Assembly: GCA_038046365.1 (NCBI GenBank)
Contig: JBBSWF010000136.1
Location: 3,681-67,680 of the forward strand
Direction of reading: 5' to 3'
DNA: 64,000 bases
DNA from: Nanobdellota archaeon
GTDB taxonomy: Archaea > Nanobdellota > Nanobdellia > Woesearchaeales > JAGWAF01
Shown here: positions 49,701 through 52,875 of the stretch, one piece after another
How positions within the stretch are numbered: position 1 is the stretch's first letter
How the letters are laid out: the number at the start of each line of letters is the position of its first letter
Notes under the pieces: generated by a model
Database searches by the model: none
The model's input: the letters and a program-made list of their open reading frames with translations, nothing else
Told to the model about the DNA's origin: nothing
Made by a program: the position numbers and the translations under genes

Positions 49701-51894
49701 AAAAGAATTGAGTGGAAAACAACAGAACACGCTAGATTCTATCTTAGATGGAAACCTAAAAACCAAAAATGCCATAGTCTACTTAACAGAGTTCGAGCCC
49801 AAAGAAATAAAAGAGCAAATCAGCGAATCGGCCAGAGAGTTCGGCCTCGACACCTTCGAGATCGGCGAAAACGTCAAAGATACAGAGACACAGGCCTCAA
49901 TAACCAAATCCCTGCAAAACTTCGCAGCCAACTCAAAGAGGGCAATGGACACATACAACCAGAACGCCAGACTAAAAGGCGAACCAACACGCACACTTAA
50001 AAACAGCGTAAAGGCAGATTACGACCCCTCAACTAAAGAAATAGAAGTCACCTACCAGGACAACGCAGGAGGAATCGACATCGAGACAGTCAGGAAAAAC
50101 CTTGAAAAAAAATGGAAAACGATATCAGAAGTCAGACAAAAATTAAGGGATATTGGAATATTTGCTGCGGACTCCCCGCAAGACCAATTGACAGATTATG
50201 AAGTCATCCACAGCATACTGCTAAAAGGCGTCACCACAAAAGTAGAAGAAGAAGGCGAGCATGGAATAGGACTCTTTGGAGTAGTCGAAGAAATGAAACA
50301 TAGCGGAGGCTGGACAACAAAAATAGACTGGAAAACCAAGGAAACCGCTGCAAAATACAAGCCGCCAGTAAGCATAGAGCAGGTCAAAGACCCGGACGGA
50401 AACGTAATCGGAACAAAATTCACACTGAGAATGAAATCGACAGATACACCGCGATTCCTGCTCGAATACCCACGAACGATGATAGCCAAGATGAGAGCGA
50501 TAGAACCTGAATCAATAGTCCAGGAAGCGTTAGTCGAGAGCGCGATGCAGACTGAAGCGGGCAATCCCATGACGCCGATGGAGGTCGCGACAGCAAAACT
50601 ACAGGCGAGGCTTGAATCACTTGGGCTGCAAGGCAAGAAGCTGGAGGACGCCTTGTCGAAGAAGCTGGAAGAAGTGCAGAGGGTAATGCCGGAGCAAGCA
50701 GAGCCTGAGAGCGCGCGATTCAAGCCGATAGAGAAGACCGAATTGATCAAAACAAATCTGGACAAGTATCTAACCAAGGCGACAGGCAGGACATTAGAGA
50801 CATTACAAGAGCTGATCCAGACCGATGAACAAGGGAACGTGTTCTTCATCGACGCTGATGGAAAACCGCATATAGAGATAACACAGTACGTGGGAGACCT
50901 AATATCTAACCTGCTCGACAGGATCGCCTTGAAGATGTTGATAGGCGAAAAAGACGAAGCGAAAGCTTATGCCCTGAAACTCGCAGACATCGTCGACGCT
51001 ATGATAAGCCAGGTCGAGACCGGATCGGCGATAGGCATACTAAAAGATCATGTAGAGGCAGCGCAGAAGACAGAAACATACAACCTGATGAAAGAAGCAT
51101 GGTATGCTAACAAAGACAAGCTTCTGGCAGAGCAGACCGAAGACACATTAAAACCCATACAGGACGCCTTACTCAAGTACAAGAAAGAGGTGTCAAACAC
51201 CTACACATACTCCGAAAGCTACCCTGCAGCGGCCGACGCGCTGGCGAAAAGACTCGCTGAAATGCAGACGATCCCACCGGCACAGGCAGAGACATCGGTC
51301 GCGATAGCGCCTACTGTCAGTGAAAAGGTCCCGAAGACCAATAGCAGGGGATACATACCGATGCGCGACGTGATCGCGAAAGGAGGGGCAGAGCAGCACA
51401 AGATGACCCTGCAGGTCAGCGGGAACCGCCTGCTAGTCGACGGAAAACCAGTCCAGGGGATAACCATCAAAGGGGACATGGCCACGATAACAGGCGAGCA
51501 GTACACAAGCTGGGAGTCGGCGATGGCATTCGCCAGAAATGAAGCGATACCGCCAGGGGTGGATGGATTCACCTACGTCGCAGAACCAGGAAGGATGGCT
51601 GGGAATACTCAGGATGAGATAAAGAAGACCCTCGGAGCAGCGAGCACAGAGGCGGTGATAAAAATCAGGTTCATCGCCCCCATTGAGAAGATATGGGTGA
51701 AATCAGAGAAGGCTAAGCCGTTCAAACTAGCGGTGGAAGAGGGAATAGACACTTACCTCATATCCGATATGGACGTAGTGGACTTGAGAGAAAAACCTCA
51801 GGATCAAGAAGCAATAGCACGATTAGGAGCGGCCACTTCAGGGTTTATGATAGATTATGACTTCGAGGTCGGAATACCTGAAGAAGTCCTGTAA
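28783..51894 (+). CDS. Giant 7,703-aa multi-pass, multi-domain protein of unknown function
   Basis: Single uninterrupted ORF of 23,112 nt. It has an N-terminal signal/anchor, four or more hydrophobic clusters, long coiled-coil-like tracts, and the recognisable modules listed as sub-features below. Confidence 0.85.
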   Translation: MKRRHLDQLIALLMIILIVDTPLVQGAATASTPAAGAGALAKTPEQVKQELTDKKEVKVENNIDSVNKALKETGEIHKDSKIDVPPEGNVERTSTGVRITAGTAEVNLDKGAKATVKMQQTLTGKLVAGAVGLVKDYNLAQTSAGQKVAAIADLVGFSGSFEEGMTAAVGLLGGQTHTTEVESETRSGKKTKRKISGGKTTVTRKGDVKVKTDKGEQETDITDFEEGTVIGGNTAIDKKNNAIASFQGQNVELSTAPDGSLRISGKGGKVSAYISVEDKYGEKGSSGTLRGTATTTDDTGWITIGHKNGETVISGQKATFVSTPNEKDIANYKPWSVSADDFSVKIDNHNQLSEARFKNGYLEPNPGRKITDSVPPLNNDYVQYFAKGTRELALNQQYSKVIIDESMWKGAVKDEFFRNGQGGEKDIIEGKQNGFFVTAKTIKPDPNEPGSKVSRRYFIENIDPKSKAGFLGFVTSEVYIPGKDGKSMMADGKPTSIKWGALMVKGKDGTLKPHVALMDESINTAALFKKNPSSIAPNVGVEFGPWKVDADKSGIMAASETKRGRQYGLFLANDALTAKTTEWRAEYTRREDAAIAAKQAALKALEGGGFTSAQIKEAQQIFAKLGVKKTAEDLKVMYYLDKKDAKSAADIATSRDNRRMVADAFSQSTDPSQQKTAMSMWGDLAKTAATEREGEELRRNILNLDGRLTGKTTFGQVDTLADEIAQGRANSKEYYKNDLEGSIRLMDANQRLADAVNFQGVDTEKRREADYISEIRSGGDAKAKTYELAVASDRIGLEQDAKDNYDLVRSHPDYYGGTNSDIVKNANARSKVIGDHLEQVVARQQAQLPAEELKKLGKSELEKIAKTLSGGSHSNEMRILGELYERRGQHDLAKQTYELGLVSSDLGAGSAAEKSLGQGRQTAMINTAVEQLPRLIQSNDFKGARALIEGISNDQKQKMEEYINNAENTKNTQDLIKNGNFAEAEATAKKITDAKTRETLLFRTYALSNDLTKLTESTSSFKDAGARDAAYDYLATTYEQRGLRASAEGLIDKIAGISPEEKALRKAMMYAGTDVSKKEHFLKQAEAILTREGAQNKEEYNMNMARYSALIGRNKDVVDSWYAAAIGDLQKAKQGATPEIIARLTEQEKSFTKEVQTLRAMDTNTRISEYTKKFSELGSQRETLRNQEGYLWNSEEIRNKVNTVNQKTAEAQKEYAAYFSTLSSAYIGLERWRIENGQYPDTPQIKQMKLDALKAAEESQRIMNKWASIPEITYRPEEIALNELTARGRELTTGIFLSNEIDGINKVQNDLTKALLEKQYGDRYAQYKLAENGGDIQKTLAAVRDDKTKFDQQLKNPYMDDIGRNNIRTFQTIVGNSLGTLEVATKPDLKVDSQTFSYLSAMRGNEINTVSRFKELNQIPLTDIERPMVDQQIYQLKASQDALSAKMYERLDTYTPTVRASIDKMTATTSVAAGVVKNNEITSFDKGLWGTGIRRFTDNLLQGSIGQAFESLADVSLASTYWSLGSDYDSTYSTYNKAFTDTIQSSKAARQLNEIAQMYPGVDIYDSKNLGKLTPEQQWIVQESIFKTKPQSIEEAYGGKSDSTYYTSGEAWKGATNLGNLGKVAASMAVAAVTTGGLGWLAGAIGLTKNVGTTTTAAANFLTNAFAFTVADEAINQIATGRYDASKFADTEFGTKLATNLVTFGAMHALGSATKPLSSYISGEGKAAIEAASKATTQPGGKAATAVIEAATKPISLPRSILAKSTEIGLTSAGMGAVFGTAEYVQRRLNGEILTAEDILTGYGSAALNGLIFTSLHQAATTAVTTAGTKVSSYLTEKALSSSAENVIKTATQFATKIGLDLRDPNKVADTLARAKLQQEGISAPTQEQVALAKSSIPKETINRATNPTASPVERAEPLRQIGRYLARTIAESQITEAEVLQKAKTLDNRGVGLEKMPETERAGLIERARQGLVEERIRNDLSRAKGNDALESQVRKGLTDAIEQEAAKPGEAILPWSDITDYQMAEAQYRKLTGQAELSSIDQKMFTLRGALPEEAFKKIIESSDYQGWIARQKTIEMDILSARQTLGELRTTAEALKGPEATSTKKPPLQDSTAYKDARVALEPTRLGTERMVLTNELSEARTSATDAQRELERLGSLADKPIENEAAFKEQAQSRGMTSEEARQEATRQATQRLEEANTKKTQLEAQLKENGDNILTANLEKAILQSPDSAVPVAAEARATSILAEITRVNQEKQRLSQTETSAKERARQLGEYERALNEALLKAHEQLNRAKAAVDSESPGVLDLLGRGGAYLTSRENLLKTKNELETAQARKIFSEDLIKRVEDAKKSRQIPNVEEIARKLAQESTDSRYARFANDAAEGIAKKAMTAEQTIESARSAAAERLDEAETRYKLAVKQFAEGQKQLLFDDNALAAQARMADAQMNAESTKAMLEKAKTAMSMAETNSIIQAMDLAMLIGDPQIKGILENINGISMLETGRSEAETVKAKDLRREEINRIVNEKMTGIEAAPGSAEHQAKLETEIKAAEAATAGKLTEYSQQAKQKVQEALQMMKAEAAQSTQKIRTADAKKTLEDIVKAEASKGNHAQIADTVRRETGLSNQDLVKLMGSERGKAPVIEERILEDREYSAQEKDSLERRVNEIEMKRKYSPLTIEETLELYRADKQARLLRLIDAKQQEVSDLVSSQGRQEGETATILEARISKARNELADLRTKKEASIKTSNEKLNLLQTLELRGWEYMTNKMGAGGRLANFDPFQVEAESIAYAQHLMGASTAMAGGKSSFVGPGILETSRSTLGMKGVFLTTQGLAFAQNQIMAEKFAMLGRKVYFLDGLDKLADRLTKTQEADFVVVGDQTIGFLLTKLWDPNTPVNERLAAKGIIGELTTNRHIFADEADSVWKPKNRYISGGKQTSPPVEKLAIASSVNTIFERMGLYVLDKNGNEAYRAKIVDGSEQTSIKTIASATSLPESEIIRFLENRNSIIREGFSDRSLSEAGSKLNAEQARKIYDAFTALKEKTKFKQEFYDELATRVATETGLTTGQVKEIFRNPNKANWNDAKVAKAIEYLEAINEFGDFMGKYKGHDYFYLESEQRIIPGKSGAPQKDQRYSNAYTALAAEYVGAKAYGQKANTEAVKVSGKAVEASLPQFYTMAERGGSFVTSMTGDPGAAEATMSLTLGMKWSASDVITKKLFGTDTKAGDWLERGLLRVTGVGANRADALDWIVSNAKTLERSGGVENKNKVYAIVSLLKGLENREISEKLTKDPRFEHITTVIESGTAELGTWTIRTKSGEVWSEKKISEAEFAEYKRRFANGEMKNTLIILGEGASRGTDIPMLRDIPWIAIGETESIKSEAQQMITRAGRVPGEEPTIHLIVSGGAKITAAELRRSMESAESYANRANAVEGAISALDGIGNDFFNQYSVRNMMGADSTAFRVNEALRDTFKGTAGKNLEITPGLESIKDSIKKKIDSAVQFWKEIQELRENPDKINDPKYAKIKNALKETLSDEISKGGDTPQVYRDALKRYFDSLSAGEEARAKALAVNPGELKTRTGDVTAGKPLFGATDYVEWADTFSKTFSEKDLPAVRSGKTAEAAIVMPAAEARLRQKKIALDEIIPLAERAEQSADAQRAAREEITRIMPEREAPAVQIAPTITSTWSSSYLSPALTRAAGYASAIGLYGVGTTLSNAASAASAATTETSATLLTALSHASTDPATLGVAILTAATAIAWTPLRNAATAFLKPTAETIAEGLESPNEALRQAAQNKLTKMGNVGARAAAKKLASKNSQTREQAYELLMQFGQTANGAEQQIMDAVTDPTETIDNKQRGIQALQSMKTTQSINTLKRIVDGTNKEAAYMAKLALEVMGIDETPVKADFPVEANKEQTAARPENQIAAGESVTIRGSTRTIERAKERLEKENIEIKIGQRTISIIKDENDGQIKILSEGKSLTLNPGDSITAGRDPQNTIDISDSQVSRNHLRINYDKESDLITITDLQSSNGSTITSKIETKALTTEEKTKTLAPEEKSVIGLYTRVSDAIYSPVEQMPKISQDEIIIDSTFGDPKKAYDKLKQTGLLPDIKIVAEGSEYLISPPFLLKGVRPAHIVFVKTPGNYKYHMQVAYRSNSASTYRLLPWIARYPIKGKETDWYVKGIMIPQGSDRPTSADENMLNYPFVITHEMNKRLLREKSIQAEPPLPVITSLSPYGGTFLPQGIETLKGLSKEVRTETFDIKNDPPIDIGTQSQPEIDFVIRDAEIAFGRNAMQLFIRSKSGQKIYRFVQAEYLVQDAATGKKRFITKTSLAGIEEIGNGVNDYGLRHKQIAQSNPILNIGGIEYDSQLQEFLYEHPVRGARQERVLEQLPDGTTKPTPYTAVPNELEPLIQQADQFFKKYGRRKEPEGPLSSISISQEESPAESRPTAELYEQISTAVQQPTKEPKDDAIEALDKAARDALKQGDEAAQNAIRTLTRINTRMSANTIIKLLEDKISDATIIKILTEETSGLKPYALSEEMERVKNLGVLPKLTSESADTQKEAVRFLGVNGNGLDLPRLTELKTTTQDPELSRIIKESIDSIRGRMVELSLQSLPAGIRTRISMKDDSTTDMIIGKYDLTKNQIIGQVGGERKILNSNEIKKIQIEGEDYMILGERRTFKTKNKYVTLPIHPDIDIVPELKEFGKVRAPSAKPTEPERAPARLIEGVISAASNIPVIGIAAGIFGLPGLAEAGQAMSTAAQAAASAIQVVPDSPGMMMATLAGGLLFAAGRRIYNRYFAAPVVELPTGPPITITIHGIDGRERSVTFEQFTAKNPIDINPIIDALSSEDTWPEAARLITDAFQEEGHETGIIRGANGEIIVHLKETLPAIETANALEKQTGIKTNCGTGSTNCAGHETKDEIELLIGKMGSGDPEEVKIVSDQLTRLGAVAVPSLILGAKNPNILIRESSLVVLGNIGGNPAISTLLDAINDKDDKVRLTAALALMKIDPSVIEGMGGNFLKVTLTLIDILARTPEENKQKILTRVTSLGEPVVPYFIVALSARNPDYAFEAYHSLIAIGKPAVSPLKSLFLNKNSGIRDTAVLALGEIGAQSEADESQRSGPPYTIRLASEIRVFLEDNLDDFDPGEVRGAVLYTLGQLKLNTWTVIDQMLNGLTRSDPYVRIMAARGLGELGNKHPTILNALIRYMDEGTFMFEGSINDRNAAVKSIGKLGVDILPDIIGKYLKASDEKSRHNLFLVMIAIKNLNPDKKERIFEVIRQSGLPQNFKELWNELSANDYALINEYSELISSQGTSRTGLENAIDTGLPVKRSSRSDGHYKDDDFSKQKDLLSLTTLIVLSELIHYLHTGQGKSDLGQIISRDLLDWGSEAGGLVVYKNGKLSFERYEPRCRGDNCRYIISEKLDADSPHALFSWHNHATKLLGNAEIAGPSGWHSAQDVSGGGDIGTAEQENKDGVVITYLGENKFNVNYYTYDGIVINLGDYSWDTSKVPLLTKEKIGELEKVYSENVVRRSDVIDNELERLLITTKNDCDSGAIPGAACSAMQTALETTNYDDKVNKIIMAQSALATPSIVAPDISKPPTDAEKSLNQKFGTLINKAQRPLDESVLEETLAARDYTTPQTMPEETAAPEVTTQPVTELLTGLPGLVEAGQITSSTMQTAPDSPLAVMATVTAGLAITAGRSIYNYFSPIGDTAGSRTARIGMIAAGALLAAPATAWAGQMLMSSPDMAISIAQTSTNPPALAASMLMGALGTLIGTVFGGYKIPPSPIRHVNKRIGPGDRYWNPTASESNVDTLRAQNDQGELLAAIIKTGEIGELVTAYASVDETGQITALTARKEELPPADIHLSIVWDGQLERYTGVEALTALTSADQSKIVDDIATAAAQANTMMEKKGGASILALVPTIEAKERSIATAIAAGAVETARSVKINFAVEGFSGPQIVRDSSRRYLISQWPSSEPALIRGLSALKPAAVIESAAILGEMRSKAAVPRLGQIASDPKRWANTNAIEALAKIDTPEAQEQIINAMNNAQGPKYKARRMFDATQLSKTTPNPQTHERALNTLIKEYDADAKTDTMIQTAKIIRNYVKEAEKHGLKSPSAIKYLKDRLLTESAQSFYWVDIHISDQIALIITLGEIGPQAEPATEKILSWIEGAIASGGVYYQDLDSAYEAIGAIKPQSKQDIDRIRDMILKNQNVYGDRKSTDLIKGLIPALGKIGKAATPTLLKLLRPQTLPEHSELVKRSLVSIGADAVAQIIPEIATVESEIANLKRQIGRYPTDIYLSVRASDLQTAKISLIDVLGLMKNQAKGAIDLLKTQLEQSKKSGNVDLNKHIIQAIGEIAPEEAIDSLIDTIKTQEKLKQLAIEQIGKIGQNEQTPKTREAATKATQPLIDVIKQSLDRSTEEGPPPGREYTIPAIESLGKISTQSEKKQQIIEFLTKALDESNKAHNTALAKENYAILEIQATVISALSEGGKDAKAAIPTIIDAIETASSRFETEPHSGSLVINAAASAIPKIGSDSRTAAAIERELAKNEDWKIPASEIGRARLEMARQANSEALRKALSDLAQKGDINAAMAIHDETALMNAGDEAVKALLERVYQINKDTREPLKAQWEVEMIAKIGTEQAVASLKELIRGDDGLANLAFYSARVHAIRDIEPAALASVSRNLGAKEDTPQAQARSGAIVYLVLMGSEEAAKELTDMMLREEGESRVKTQLKNAADTIREDARRESDIRSQEELSKKKALALADRFSKKDGITGCAGGECIETDGIAAQIRQMTEAGHISELMDYLESLSEEMGNFERSVGIKQEIRPEIDDTLTDLETTRVMVETHTKQLQKEFSLSDGQQKKMMLMYLASPEDLRSQLISFWHDILNPMNIVTGYTYMLREDKETQKLLERELTIQTNKLNELVEMVRSGKEWDFSKQSRPGLLLLYAHQIQALNEILTRNYLAIQPYRKELSGKQQNTLDSILDGNLKTKNAIVYLTEFEPKEIKEQISESAREFGLDTFEIGENVKDTETQASITKSLQNFAANSKRAMDTYNQNARLKGEPTRTLKNSVKADYDPSTKEIEVTYQDNAGGIDIETVRKNLEKKWKTISEVRQKLRDIGIFAADSPQDQLTDYEVIHSILLKGVTTKVEEEGEHGIGLFGVVEEMKHSGGWTTKIDWKTKETAAKYKPPVSIEQVKDPDGNVIGTKFTLRMKSTDTPRFLLEYPRTMIAKMRAIEPESIVQEALVESAMQTEAGNPMTPMEVATAKLQARLESLGLQGKKLEDALSKKLEEVQRVMPEQAEPESARFKPIEKTELIKTNLDKYLTKATGRTLETLQELIQTDEQGNVFFIDADGKPHIEITQYVGDLISNLLDRIALKMLIGEKDEAKAYALKLADIVDAMISQVETGSAIGILKDHVEAAQKTETYNLMKEAWYANKDKLLAEQTEDTLKPIQDALLKYKKEVSNTYTYSESYPAAADALAKRLAEMQTIPPAQAETSVAIAPTVSEKVPKTNSRGYIPMRDVIAKGGAEQHKMTLQVSGNRLLVDGKPVQGITIKGDMATITGEQYTSWESAMAFARNEAIPPGVDGFTYVAEPGRMAGNTQDEIKKTLGAASTEAVIKIRFIAPIEKIWVKSEKAKPFKLAVEEGIDTYLISDMDVVDLREKPQDQEAIARLGAATSGFMIDYDFEVGIPEEVL
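33649..34250 (+). other. Giant ORF: transmembrane cluster 1 (about 5 hydrophobic helices)
   Basis: KVAASMAVAAVTTGGLGWLAGAIGL, AAANFLTNAFAFTVA, LATNLVTFGAMHALG, IGLTSAGMGAVFGTA and GSAALNGLIFTSL. Confidence 0.5.
37100..39000 (+). other. Giant ORF: SecA-like DEAD motor ATPase (NBD1, insertion, NBD2)
   Basis: AMAGGKSS (Walker A, K2804), IFADEADSVWKPKNRYISGG (DEAD at aa 2916-2919), SMTGDPGAAEATMSL, GEGASRGTDIPM and ESIKSEAQQMITRAGRVPGE. These are collinear with the SecA motifs [26 protein letters not shown], GMTGTAxTEAxEF, NMAGRGTDI and ESRRIDNQLRGRSGRQGD. Confidence 0.65.
39830..40055 (+). other. Giant ORF: hydrophobic cluster 2
   Basis: YLSPALTRAAGYASAIGLYGVGTTL ... LGVAILTAATAIAWTPL. Confidence 0.4.
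40093..40455 (+). other. Giant ORF: HEAT-like repeat block 1
   Basis: SPNEALRQAAQNKLTKMGNVGARAAAKKLASKNSQTREQAYELLMQFG... follows a PBS-lyase/HEAT-like periodicity. Confidence 0.45.
40699..40875 (+). other. Giant ORF: FHA (forkhead-associated, phosphothreonine-binding) domain
   Basis: LTLNPGDSITAGRDPQNTIDISDSQVSRNHLRINYDKESDLITITDLQSSNGSTI carries the G-R ... S-x-x-H ... N-G pattern (G3985, R3986, S4000, H4003). Confidence 0.7.
43000..43161 (+). repeat. Giant ORF: internal repeat copy 1 (hydrophobic hairpin motif)
   Basis: GLPGLAEAGQAMSTAAQAAASAIQVVPDSPGMMMATLAGGLLFAAGRRIYNRYF (aa 4740-4793). Confidence 0.6.
43550..44600 (+). other. Giant ORF: HEAT-like repeat block 2
   Basis: GSGDPEEVKIVSDQLTRLGAVAVPSLILGAKNPNILIRESSLVVLGNIGGNPAISTLLDAINDKDDKVRLTAALALMKIDP, then NSGIRDTAVLALGEIG and SDPYVRIMAARGLGELG. 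Confidence 0.65.
44920..45150 (+). other. Giant ORF: possible JAB/MPN (JAMM) metalloprotease-like site
   Basis: E5384 (WGSEAGGLVVY), H5430-N-H5432 (FSWHNHATK) and S5450-A-Q-D5453 (WHSAQD). The H-to-S spacing is longer than the classic HxHx7Sx2D. Confidence 0.35.
45754..45891 (+). repeat. Giant ORF: internal repeat copy 2 (hydrophobic hairpin motif), followed by further hydrophobic helices to about 46130
   Basis: GLPGLVEAGQITSSTMQTAPDSPLAVMATVTAGLAITAGRSIYNYF (aa 5658-5703). Similarity is also visible at the nucleotide level: GGACT(G/A)CCTGGACT..GA.GCAGGACA. Confidence 0.6.
46690..48900 (+). other. Giant ORF: HEAT/ARM-like repeat block 3 (about 2 kb)
   Basis: Recurrent units include AILGEMRSKAAVPRLGQIASD, AIEALAKIDTPEAQEQII, LIPALGKIGKAATPTLLKLL, IIQAIGEIAPEEAIDSLIDTI, IPAIESLGKIS, VISALSEGGKDAKAAIPTIIDAI and MIAKIGTEQAVASLKELI. 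Confidence 0.55.
49411..50440 (+). other. Giant ORF: histidine-kinase module (HisKA-like H-box plus HATPase_c)
   Basis: The H-box is LISFWHDILNPMNIVTGY (H6887). The N-box-like motif is NFAANSKRAMD, G1 is YQDNAGGIDIE and G2 is EHGIGLFGVVEE. The module ends ...GTKFTLRMKS. Confidence 0.7.

Positions 51895-52875: not shown

Follow-up and report, generated by a model that had tools for sequence, protein, structure and literature searches.

Among the closest described relatives of the protein analyzed here is SCO6735 of Streptomyces coelicolor (PDB 5E3B), a solo macrodomain that removes ADP-ribose from thymidine and protects against DarT, although its host genome is without DarT (PMC9411070). In SCO6735, an essential Gln85 stands in for the catalytic Lys; Asn27 positions Gln85 and His24 lies beside it, while Gln itself is incapable of acid-base catalysis (PMC9411070). 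SCO6735 can also inhibit DarT through binding (PMC9411070), and it also takes uracil-linked ADP-ribose off RNA (PMC13036486). Stand-alone macrodomains named AdfM are encoded by phages: the T4 protein (Tk.4) is required for resistance to DarTG2 (PMC13716836), and that of PhiKZ counters DarTG2 (PMC13309987). Here we describe a two-gene unit present on a 64,000-nucleotide (nt) stretch of DNA of a Nanobdellota archaeon (the window; the genome is referred to as G000). The unit is composed of a gene encoding a small macrodomain protein (the macro gene) and of an upstream gene encoding a protein without recognizable relatives outside its lineage (the partner gene).

The macro gene occupies positions 51838-52281 of the window and the partner gene, the first cistron, positions 52282-52875, both on the minus strand; they encode proteins of 147 and 197 amino acids (aa), respectively. 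The TAG stop codon of the partner gene (52284-52282) directly abuts the ATG of the macro gene (52281-52279). The 3′ end of the macro gene overlaps by 57 nt (51838-51894) with that of a giant open reading frame (ORF) of 7703 aa, a convergent neighbor that lies outside the unit (28783-51894, plus strand). All three ORFs, the stop/ATG abutment and the overlap were found at the coordinates given in a first-pass annotation of this DNA, which had regarded the macro and partner genes as a coupled two-gene unit. This view is upheld by the abutment, which is kept in all orthologous loci (see below).

The assignment of the 147-aa protein to the TARG1/DarG-type macrodomains, also made by the first-pass annotation, was confirmed by matches to the Pfam Macro family (E = 3.3e-16) and to the PADLOC DarG profile (7e-34), the latter covering the macro part only (profile positions 5-144 of 329). 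The best sequence matches in the PDB were the macrodomains of Mycobacterium tuberculosis and Thermus aquaticus DarG (5m3i at 2.6e-19), followed by TARG1. When a profile of 20 homologues was used, the M. tuberculosis DarG macrodomain was matched at 9e-36, TARG1 at 1e-26, BT1257 at 2e-19 and SCO6735 at 7e-19. The AlphaFold2 model of the macro protein has a predicted local distance difference test score (pLDDT) of 93.1, and Foldseek superimposed it on 5m3i with a template modeling (TM) score of 0.91 at 1.6 Å, on TARG1 with a TM score of 0.83 and on SCO6735 with one of 0.80. By these matches, the macro protein is securely placed in the TARG1/DarG (ALC1-like) macrodomain class. The ADP-ribose pocket, on which the earlier proposal depended, is also recovered: the model matches the DarG:ADP-ribose complex 5m3e (TM score 0.90), and the pocket residues are intact except for Asp28.

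Residue conservation was counted among 58 macro homologues. Alignments to DarG and TARG1 place Gln79, which follows a conserved Thr, in the column of TARG1 Lys84 and of the first Lys of the DarG PTKK motif (Lys80 in T. aquaticus), and Gln is present at this position in 56 of the 58 homologues. The motifs ATQKD and GLGGLDW had been proposed to provide the catalytic Lys and Asp, but these residues are variable: Lys80 is a Lys in four homologues, the two closest orthologues having Glu and Ala, and Asp122 is an Asp in 15. Moreover, the column of TARG1 Asp125 corresponds to Gly119 of the macro protein, and thus the Lys84/Asp125 dyad is not present. Strict or nearly strict conservation was observed for His19 (57 of 58) and for Asn22, Gly115, Gly117 and Gly119 (58 of 58 each). 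Together, Gln79, His19, Asn22 and the phosphate-loop glycines constitute the signature of SCO6735. Judged by these residues, the macro protein is a Gln-type solo macrodomain, similar to SCO6735 and T4 Tk.4/AdfM, and not a Lys or Lys/Asp enzyme. One position of the MGAGIA ribose/phosphate loop is exceptional. Codon 28 (52200-52202) encodes Asp, whereas Gly is found at this position in 55 of the 58 homologues, the two orthologues among them; this G28D replacement recurs in separate assemblies and is unique to the window protein among the homologues.

SCO6735 and the macro protein have several features in common. Both are solo proteins of ∼150-180 aa that belong to the ALC1/TARG1-like class and are encoded in genomes lacking DarT; both have Gln at the position of the catalytic Lys (Gln85 and Gln79, respectively), His24 and Asn27 of SCO6735 correspond to His19 and Asn22, and the phosphate-loop glycines are shared. 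They differ in that sequence identity is only ∼21%, and in that the TM score of 0.80 is below that obtained for DarG. In addition, SCO6735 has a longer, Lys-rich mobile loop that is missing from the macro protein, in which Ala29 takes the position equivalent to Lys34 and Asp28 is present. Finally, it is archaeal and its gene is probably translationally coupled to that of the upstream orphan. The phage AdfM proteins (T4 Tk.4 and PhiKZ gp104) are likewise stand-alone DarG-like macrodomains; Tk.4 has the HGCNC and TQ motifs in common with the macro protein, and the alignment extends over the full length (27% identity, E 2e-10), and the macro protein falls in the same PHROG family (phrog_335, 8e-34). 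Unlike the phage genes, however, the macro gene is located in a chromosomal, syntenic block of native composition in a DPANN-type archaeon without viral context, and by analogy its role would be in cellular immunity or repair and not in counter-defense. Human TARG1/OARD1 (PDB 4J5S) is of the same macro class, similar in size and also solo, but differs in the dyad positions mentioned above. These results extend the range of Gln-type solo TARG1/DarG-like macrodomains into the DPANN archaea; SCO6735 of Streptomyces and the phage AdfM proteins had already shown this kind to protect against DNA ADP-ribosylation of the DarT type.

DarG of T. aquaticus and M. tuberculosis (PDB 5M31, 5M3I, 5M3E) gave the best match in both sequence and structure (TM scores 0.89-0.91). 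The GGLDW loop is common to both proteins, and the order of partner and macro genes resembles that of darT and darG. Nevertheless, Lys80 of DarG is replaced by Gln in the macro protein, which comprises 147 aa against ∼330-350 aa for DarG and ends with the macro fold, without the C-terminal DarT-binding domain. It scored 105.5 bits against the NCBIfam DarG model (NF048014), whose cut-off is 250 bits. No match to DarT (PF14487) was found anywhere in genome G000, which is 86% complete, nor in particular next to the macro gene. Hence, whereas the N-terminal ALC1/TARG1-like macrodomain of DarG is present, the catalytic Lys, the C-terminal DarT-binding domain and an adjacent DarT are not. The absence of three of these four features indicates that the macro protein is not a DarG antitoxin.

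DarT is present in two of 201 genomes of the same archaeal order (G082 and G174), in each case beside a true DarG. In contrast to the macro protein, which has the motifs HGCNC and TQ, these DarGs are of the Lys type, read NTVNC and PTK, and have a C-terminal tail resembling a helix-hairpin-helix. The presence of a Gln-type macro gene in the window, together with the sporadic presence of DarTG in the same order, suggests that ADP-ribosylation warfare may matter for these episymbionts. The two signatures (HGCNC plus TQ versus NTVNC plus PTK) tell stand-alone "immunity" macrodomains apart from genuine DarG antitoxins, and prevent the mis-annotation as DarG that the best PADLOC match would suggest. 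The two canonical pairs have some features of their own. They are located at L013:781-2343 and L014:536-2076, and their genes are convergent, not operonic, with a 4-nt overlap in L014. Their DarTs carry an N-terminal Cys-rich (zinc-ribbon-like) and Lys/Glu-rich extension, and their DarGs, with a Lys-type macrodomain, are short (229-234 aa).

Orthologues of the pair were found on three further metagenomic contigs (L001, L002 and L006). L001 and L002 are identical across the DUF4013 gene they share and were therefore counted as one population, which leaves L001/L002 and L006 as two independent relatives. The block formed by the DUF4013 gene, the partner gene, the macro gene and the convergent giant gene is common to the window and the three contigs. 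The stop and start codons at the junction of partner and macro genes read TAGATG in the window, TAAATG in L001 and TAGATG in L006 (junction sequences TGGGTGATGTTTAGATG, GGGTGATGATTAAATG and GGGTGGCTGCTAGATG, respectively). Identity to the window proteins is 80% for partner and macro protein alike in L001/L002, and 52% and 75%, respectively, in L006. The ratio of nonsynonymous to synonymous substitution rates (dN/dS) is 0.10 (versus L006) and 0.49 (versus L001) for the partner gene, and 0.13-0.26 for the macro gene. Both are real genes under purifying selection. The partner changes at about the same pace as the C-terminus of the giant protein (52-54% identity), whereas the macro protein (75%) and the DUF4013 protein (63%) are better conserved.

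A near-identical long-read assembly of the window locus is also available (L019, ENA ERZ1286166 contig_5956, 98 kb), in which insertions and deletions at homopolymers break the macro and giant genes. One of the proteins predicted from it, P0006, was considered as a frameshifted macro gene beside an intact partner, that is, as a natural experiment against an essential antitoxin. This candidate was rejected because the giant gene is also split into many small ORFs in L019 and because the changes fall at homopolymers, as expected for long-read assembly errors; protein predictions from this assembly, such as P0006, are artefacts.

The partner protein did not match any family. Searches with all three orthologues against Pfam, PADLOC, NCBIfam, PHROG and the PDB returned nothing, even at E ≤ 10, and neither did a phmmer search of the PDB with the partner. 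The earlier failure to align the partner to DarT motifs was reproduced: hhalign gave a probability of 0.1% against a shallow DarT alignment built from two DPANN DarTs (three DarT loci were collected). These searches provided no link to any ADP-ribosyltransferase (ART), DarT, PARP or Tpt1 family. No ART signature (H-Y-E or R-S-E) was assignable from only three sequences. The AlphaFold2 model, based on a 3-sequence alignment, has a pLDDT of 38.5 and is too poor to judge the fold; the best Foldseek match to it (E 0.69, TM score below 0.25) is noise. The protein is rich in Ser, Leu, Phe and Cys, near neutral, and has no evident membrane segment.

Relatives of the partner beyond the three orthologues were sought at several scales. 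None was detected in a word-indexed search of 5.8 billion proteins, using the single sequence as well as a profile. An exhaustive phmmer search of 1.84 billion representatives gave a sole extra match, P0062, which is a low-complexity repeat protein. Only orthologues or chance-level matches were obtained from GTDB genome contigs and JGI metagenome contigs, and no further homologue was present in 60 relatives, nor in 401 genomes of the phylum translated in six frames. Also, none of the 50,697 records of a phage collection contained a match. By these searches, the partner is a lineage-restricted orphan with only three orthologues, all of them located in the DUF4013-partner-macro-giant block.

Gln-type macro genes found elsewhere, on phage-like contigs and at bacterial loci, have no conserved upstream partner. 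The macro gene of one bacterial locus is solo, as is the only other macro gene among the 60 relatives. The latter, a DarG-like gene of genome G040 (L005:1462-1965), is also of the Gln type (GIQ), and its 3′ end overlaps a convergent gene of 462 aa by 17 nt. The closest non-archaeal macro homologues (∼40-44% identity) are on three Logan and ENA contigs of 21-124 kb (L007, L010 and L011). There, the macro gene forms part of a phage-like module together with genes for a Bax1-I-like membrane protein, an RNase_T-like exonuclease and an N6/N4 DNA methyltransferase, and with several tiny ORFs; an EF-Ts-domain protein is encoded in the module of two of these contigs (L007 and L011).

The region upstream of the partner gene contains a TATA box (TTTAAAAA, 52897-52904, minus strand) that starts 29 nt upstream of the partner ATG. 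It is part of a motif (CACCTTTAAAA) whose spacing is identical at the three loci compared (window, L001, L006), whereas the remainder of the L006 spacer around it has diverged. When 1270 ORFs of at least 200 aa in genome G000 were analyzed, TATA-like hexamers formed one sharp peak at positions -32 to -28 from the first ATG. A TATA peak at such a distance from the first ATG is the signature of leaderless archaeal mRNAs. This distribution suggests that a large share of G000 genes is transcribed as leaderless mRNAs and, taken with the position of the partner TATA box at -29, that the partner ATG is a typical leaderless start. Partner and macro genes would then be carried on one leaderless bicistronic transcript that starts at this conserved promoter. 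A sequence resembling a Shine-Dalgarno motif, GGGTGAT (52288-52294, minus strand), is present within the last codons of the partner gene, 7-13 nt upstream of the macro ATG. Its presence fits reinitiation on a bicistronic mRNA, and the macro gene, as second cistron, may be translated by reinitiation at the TAG|ATG junction. A T6 tract located between the DUF4013 gene and the pair (52920-52925, minus strand) probably ends the DUF4013 transcript, as a likely archaeal terminator; a T-run is also found in L001 and L006.

Considered jointly, we find it probable, though by no means settled, that the locus is a leaderless bicistronic unit in which a Gln-type solo macro hydrolase provides a self-contained immunity or repair function, next to an orphan partner and with an incidental overlap at its 3′ end. 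In this macro protein, Gln79 would take the place of the catalytic Lys and be positioned by Asn22 and His19, as in SCO6735 and T4 Tk.4/AdfM. By analogy, it would most likely remove base-linked ADP-ribose, from thymidine on single-stranded DNA and possibly from uracil on RNA, and would act against DarT-like toxins of neighbors, hosts or mobile elements, not as an antitoxin to a toxin of its own genome. For the partner, the likeliest roles would be those of an accessory protein or regulator without toxicity, or of a co-transcribed gene with an unrelated function. Several points weigh against this explanation. Binding could be impaired, or lost altogether, through Asp28 in the MGAGIA loop. Identity to the assayed Gln-type enzymes, T4 Tk.4 and SCO6735, is 21-27%, and the 33% match is to a Lys-type protein, the M. 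tuberculosis DarG macrodomain. The conserved tight coupling and the darT-darG order are left unexplained if the partner is irrelevant, and at 86% completeness of the genome a writer may be encoded elsewhere. The first of these points bears on the possibility that the macro protein is decaying, or is a non-catalytic binder of ADP-ribose or of another NAD metabolite that senses or sequesters its ligand and perhaps regulates the partner. Such a role would be in line with a G28D replacement seen in none of the other homologues and with the inability of Gln to perform acid-base catalysis (PMC9411070). We regard it as highly improbable, however: Gln-type enzymes show high activity both in vitro and in vivo, every other pocket residue is intact, the macro gene is under purifying selection, and Asp28 is found in independent assemblies while both orthologues keep Gly.

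The coupling and the gene order speak for what the first-pass annotation had put forward, namely that the partner is a writer or toxin whose modification the macro protein reverses. The partner would then be an unrecognizable ADP-ribosyltransferase or other NAD+-dependent toxin and the macro protein its cognate antitoxin, the two forming a minimal DarTG-like module in DPANN archaea. The partner gene comes first, as darT does, and its product is similar in size to DarT; the stop/ATG abutment and the dedicated promoter are kept in three independent loci, and the pair has persisted although synonymous divergence is saturated (dS > 1). DarTG in its canonical form is also present in this order, and SCO6735 has the capacity to inhibit DarT by binding (PMC9411070). 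If this reading were true, the partner would be the first of an unrecognized family of NAD+-dependent toxins that modify nucleic acids (or proteins). The module would be unrelated to DarT and native to DPANN, and its macrodomain the first of the SCO6735/AdfM type with a cognate resident writer; a new toxin family would be defined if the partner proved toxic. Yet no positive evidence was obtained beyond gene order and coupling. None of the three orthologues gave an ART, DarT, PARP or Tpt1 signal at E ≤ 10 or by hhalign, the macro protein lacks the toxin-binding C-terminal domain of DarG, Gln-type macro genes elsewhere do without the partner, and G28D in a conserved loop would be risky for an essential antitoxin. 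Known toxin-antitoxin modules are typically mobile and patchy across lineages. The pair does not have this generic type II trait of a patchy, mobile cassette present in many lineages: it is kept together only in three genomes that are close relatives, within a single syntenic block of native composition, and coupling that is conserved in a single narrow lineage is weak evidence of functional linkage. We therefore consider a resident writer/antitoxin pair unlikely. A different origin would be that the pair, or the macro gene alone, is an AdfM-like counter-defense cassette that came from an archaeal virus or mobile element and became fixed in the chromosome, the partner being a viral orphan. Consistent with this, the nearest relatives from beyond the lineage, at 44% identity, are encoded on phage-like contigs, macro homologues are present in 435 of the phage records, the macro gene has a patchy distribution within the order (2 of 61 genomes), the codon-usage score of the partner is at the 6th percentile, and the locus adjoins a tRNA-Arg hotspot. 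On the other hand, the G+C content is native (partner 0.497, macro 0.527, genome 0.497), and horizontal transfer, when judged by composition, is therefore unsupported. Furthermore, there is no integrase, capsid or other viral gene within the block, the block is syntenic in all three relatives with the variable DNA on the far side of the DUF4013 gene, and the phage records hold no match to the partner. A domesticated cassette is accordingly quite improbable, and the self-contained immunity or repair function remains the explanation that we favor.

The 57-nt overlap with the giant gene had been suggested to couple expression of the pair to that of the giant gene. The overlap is also 57 nt in L001, but is missing in L006, where 3 nt separate the end of the giant ORF from the macro stop codon and the giant protein is without a tail of ∼22 aa. 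Because L006 is the most distant orthologous locus, the overlap is probably incidental, and coupling through it is without support. In a crude census of long ORFs in the genome, 40 of 358 convergent pairs overlapped, 13 of them by at least 50 nt, showing that an overlap of 57 nt is unusual but not unique. Comparison of the loci favors drift of the stop codon in a compact genome, with a C-terminal tail of the giant ORF that is specific to the lineage as the source of the overlap.

On its other side, the unit is flanked by the DUF4013 membrane-protein gene (52962-53609, minus strand; Pfam PF13197 at 8e-11), an upstream neighbor that is kept in L001, L002 and L006, has its own likely terminator and is probably transcribed separately. 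In the window this gene and a tRNA-Arg(GCG) gene are nearly adjacent (53609-53900), unlike in the sister species L001, where a cassette of two genes, encoding a HATPase_c_2 protein and a DUF4325 protein, is inserted between them (L001:7747-9402). The presence of this cassette in L001 but not in the window indicates that the tRNA-Arg side of the block is a variable hotspot.

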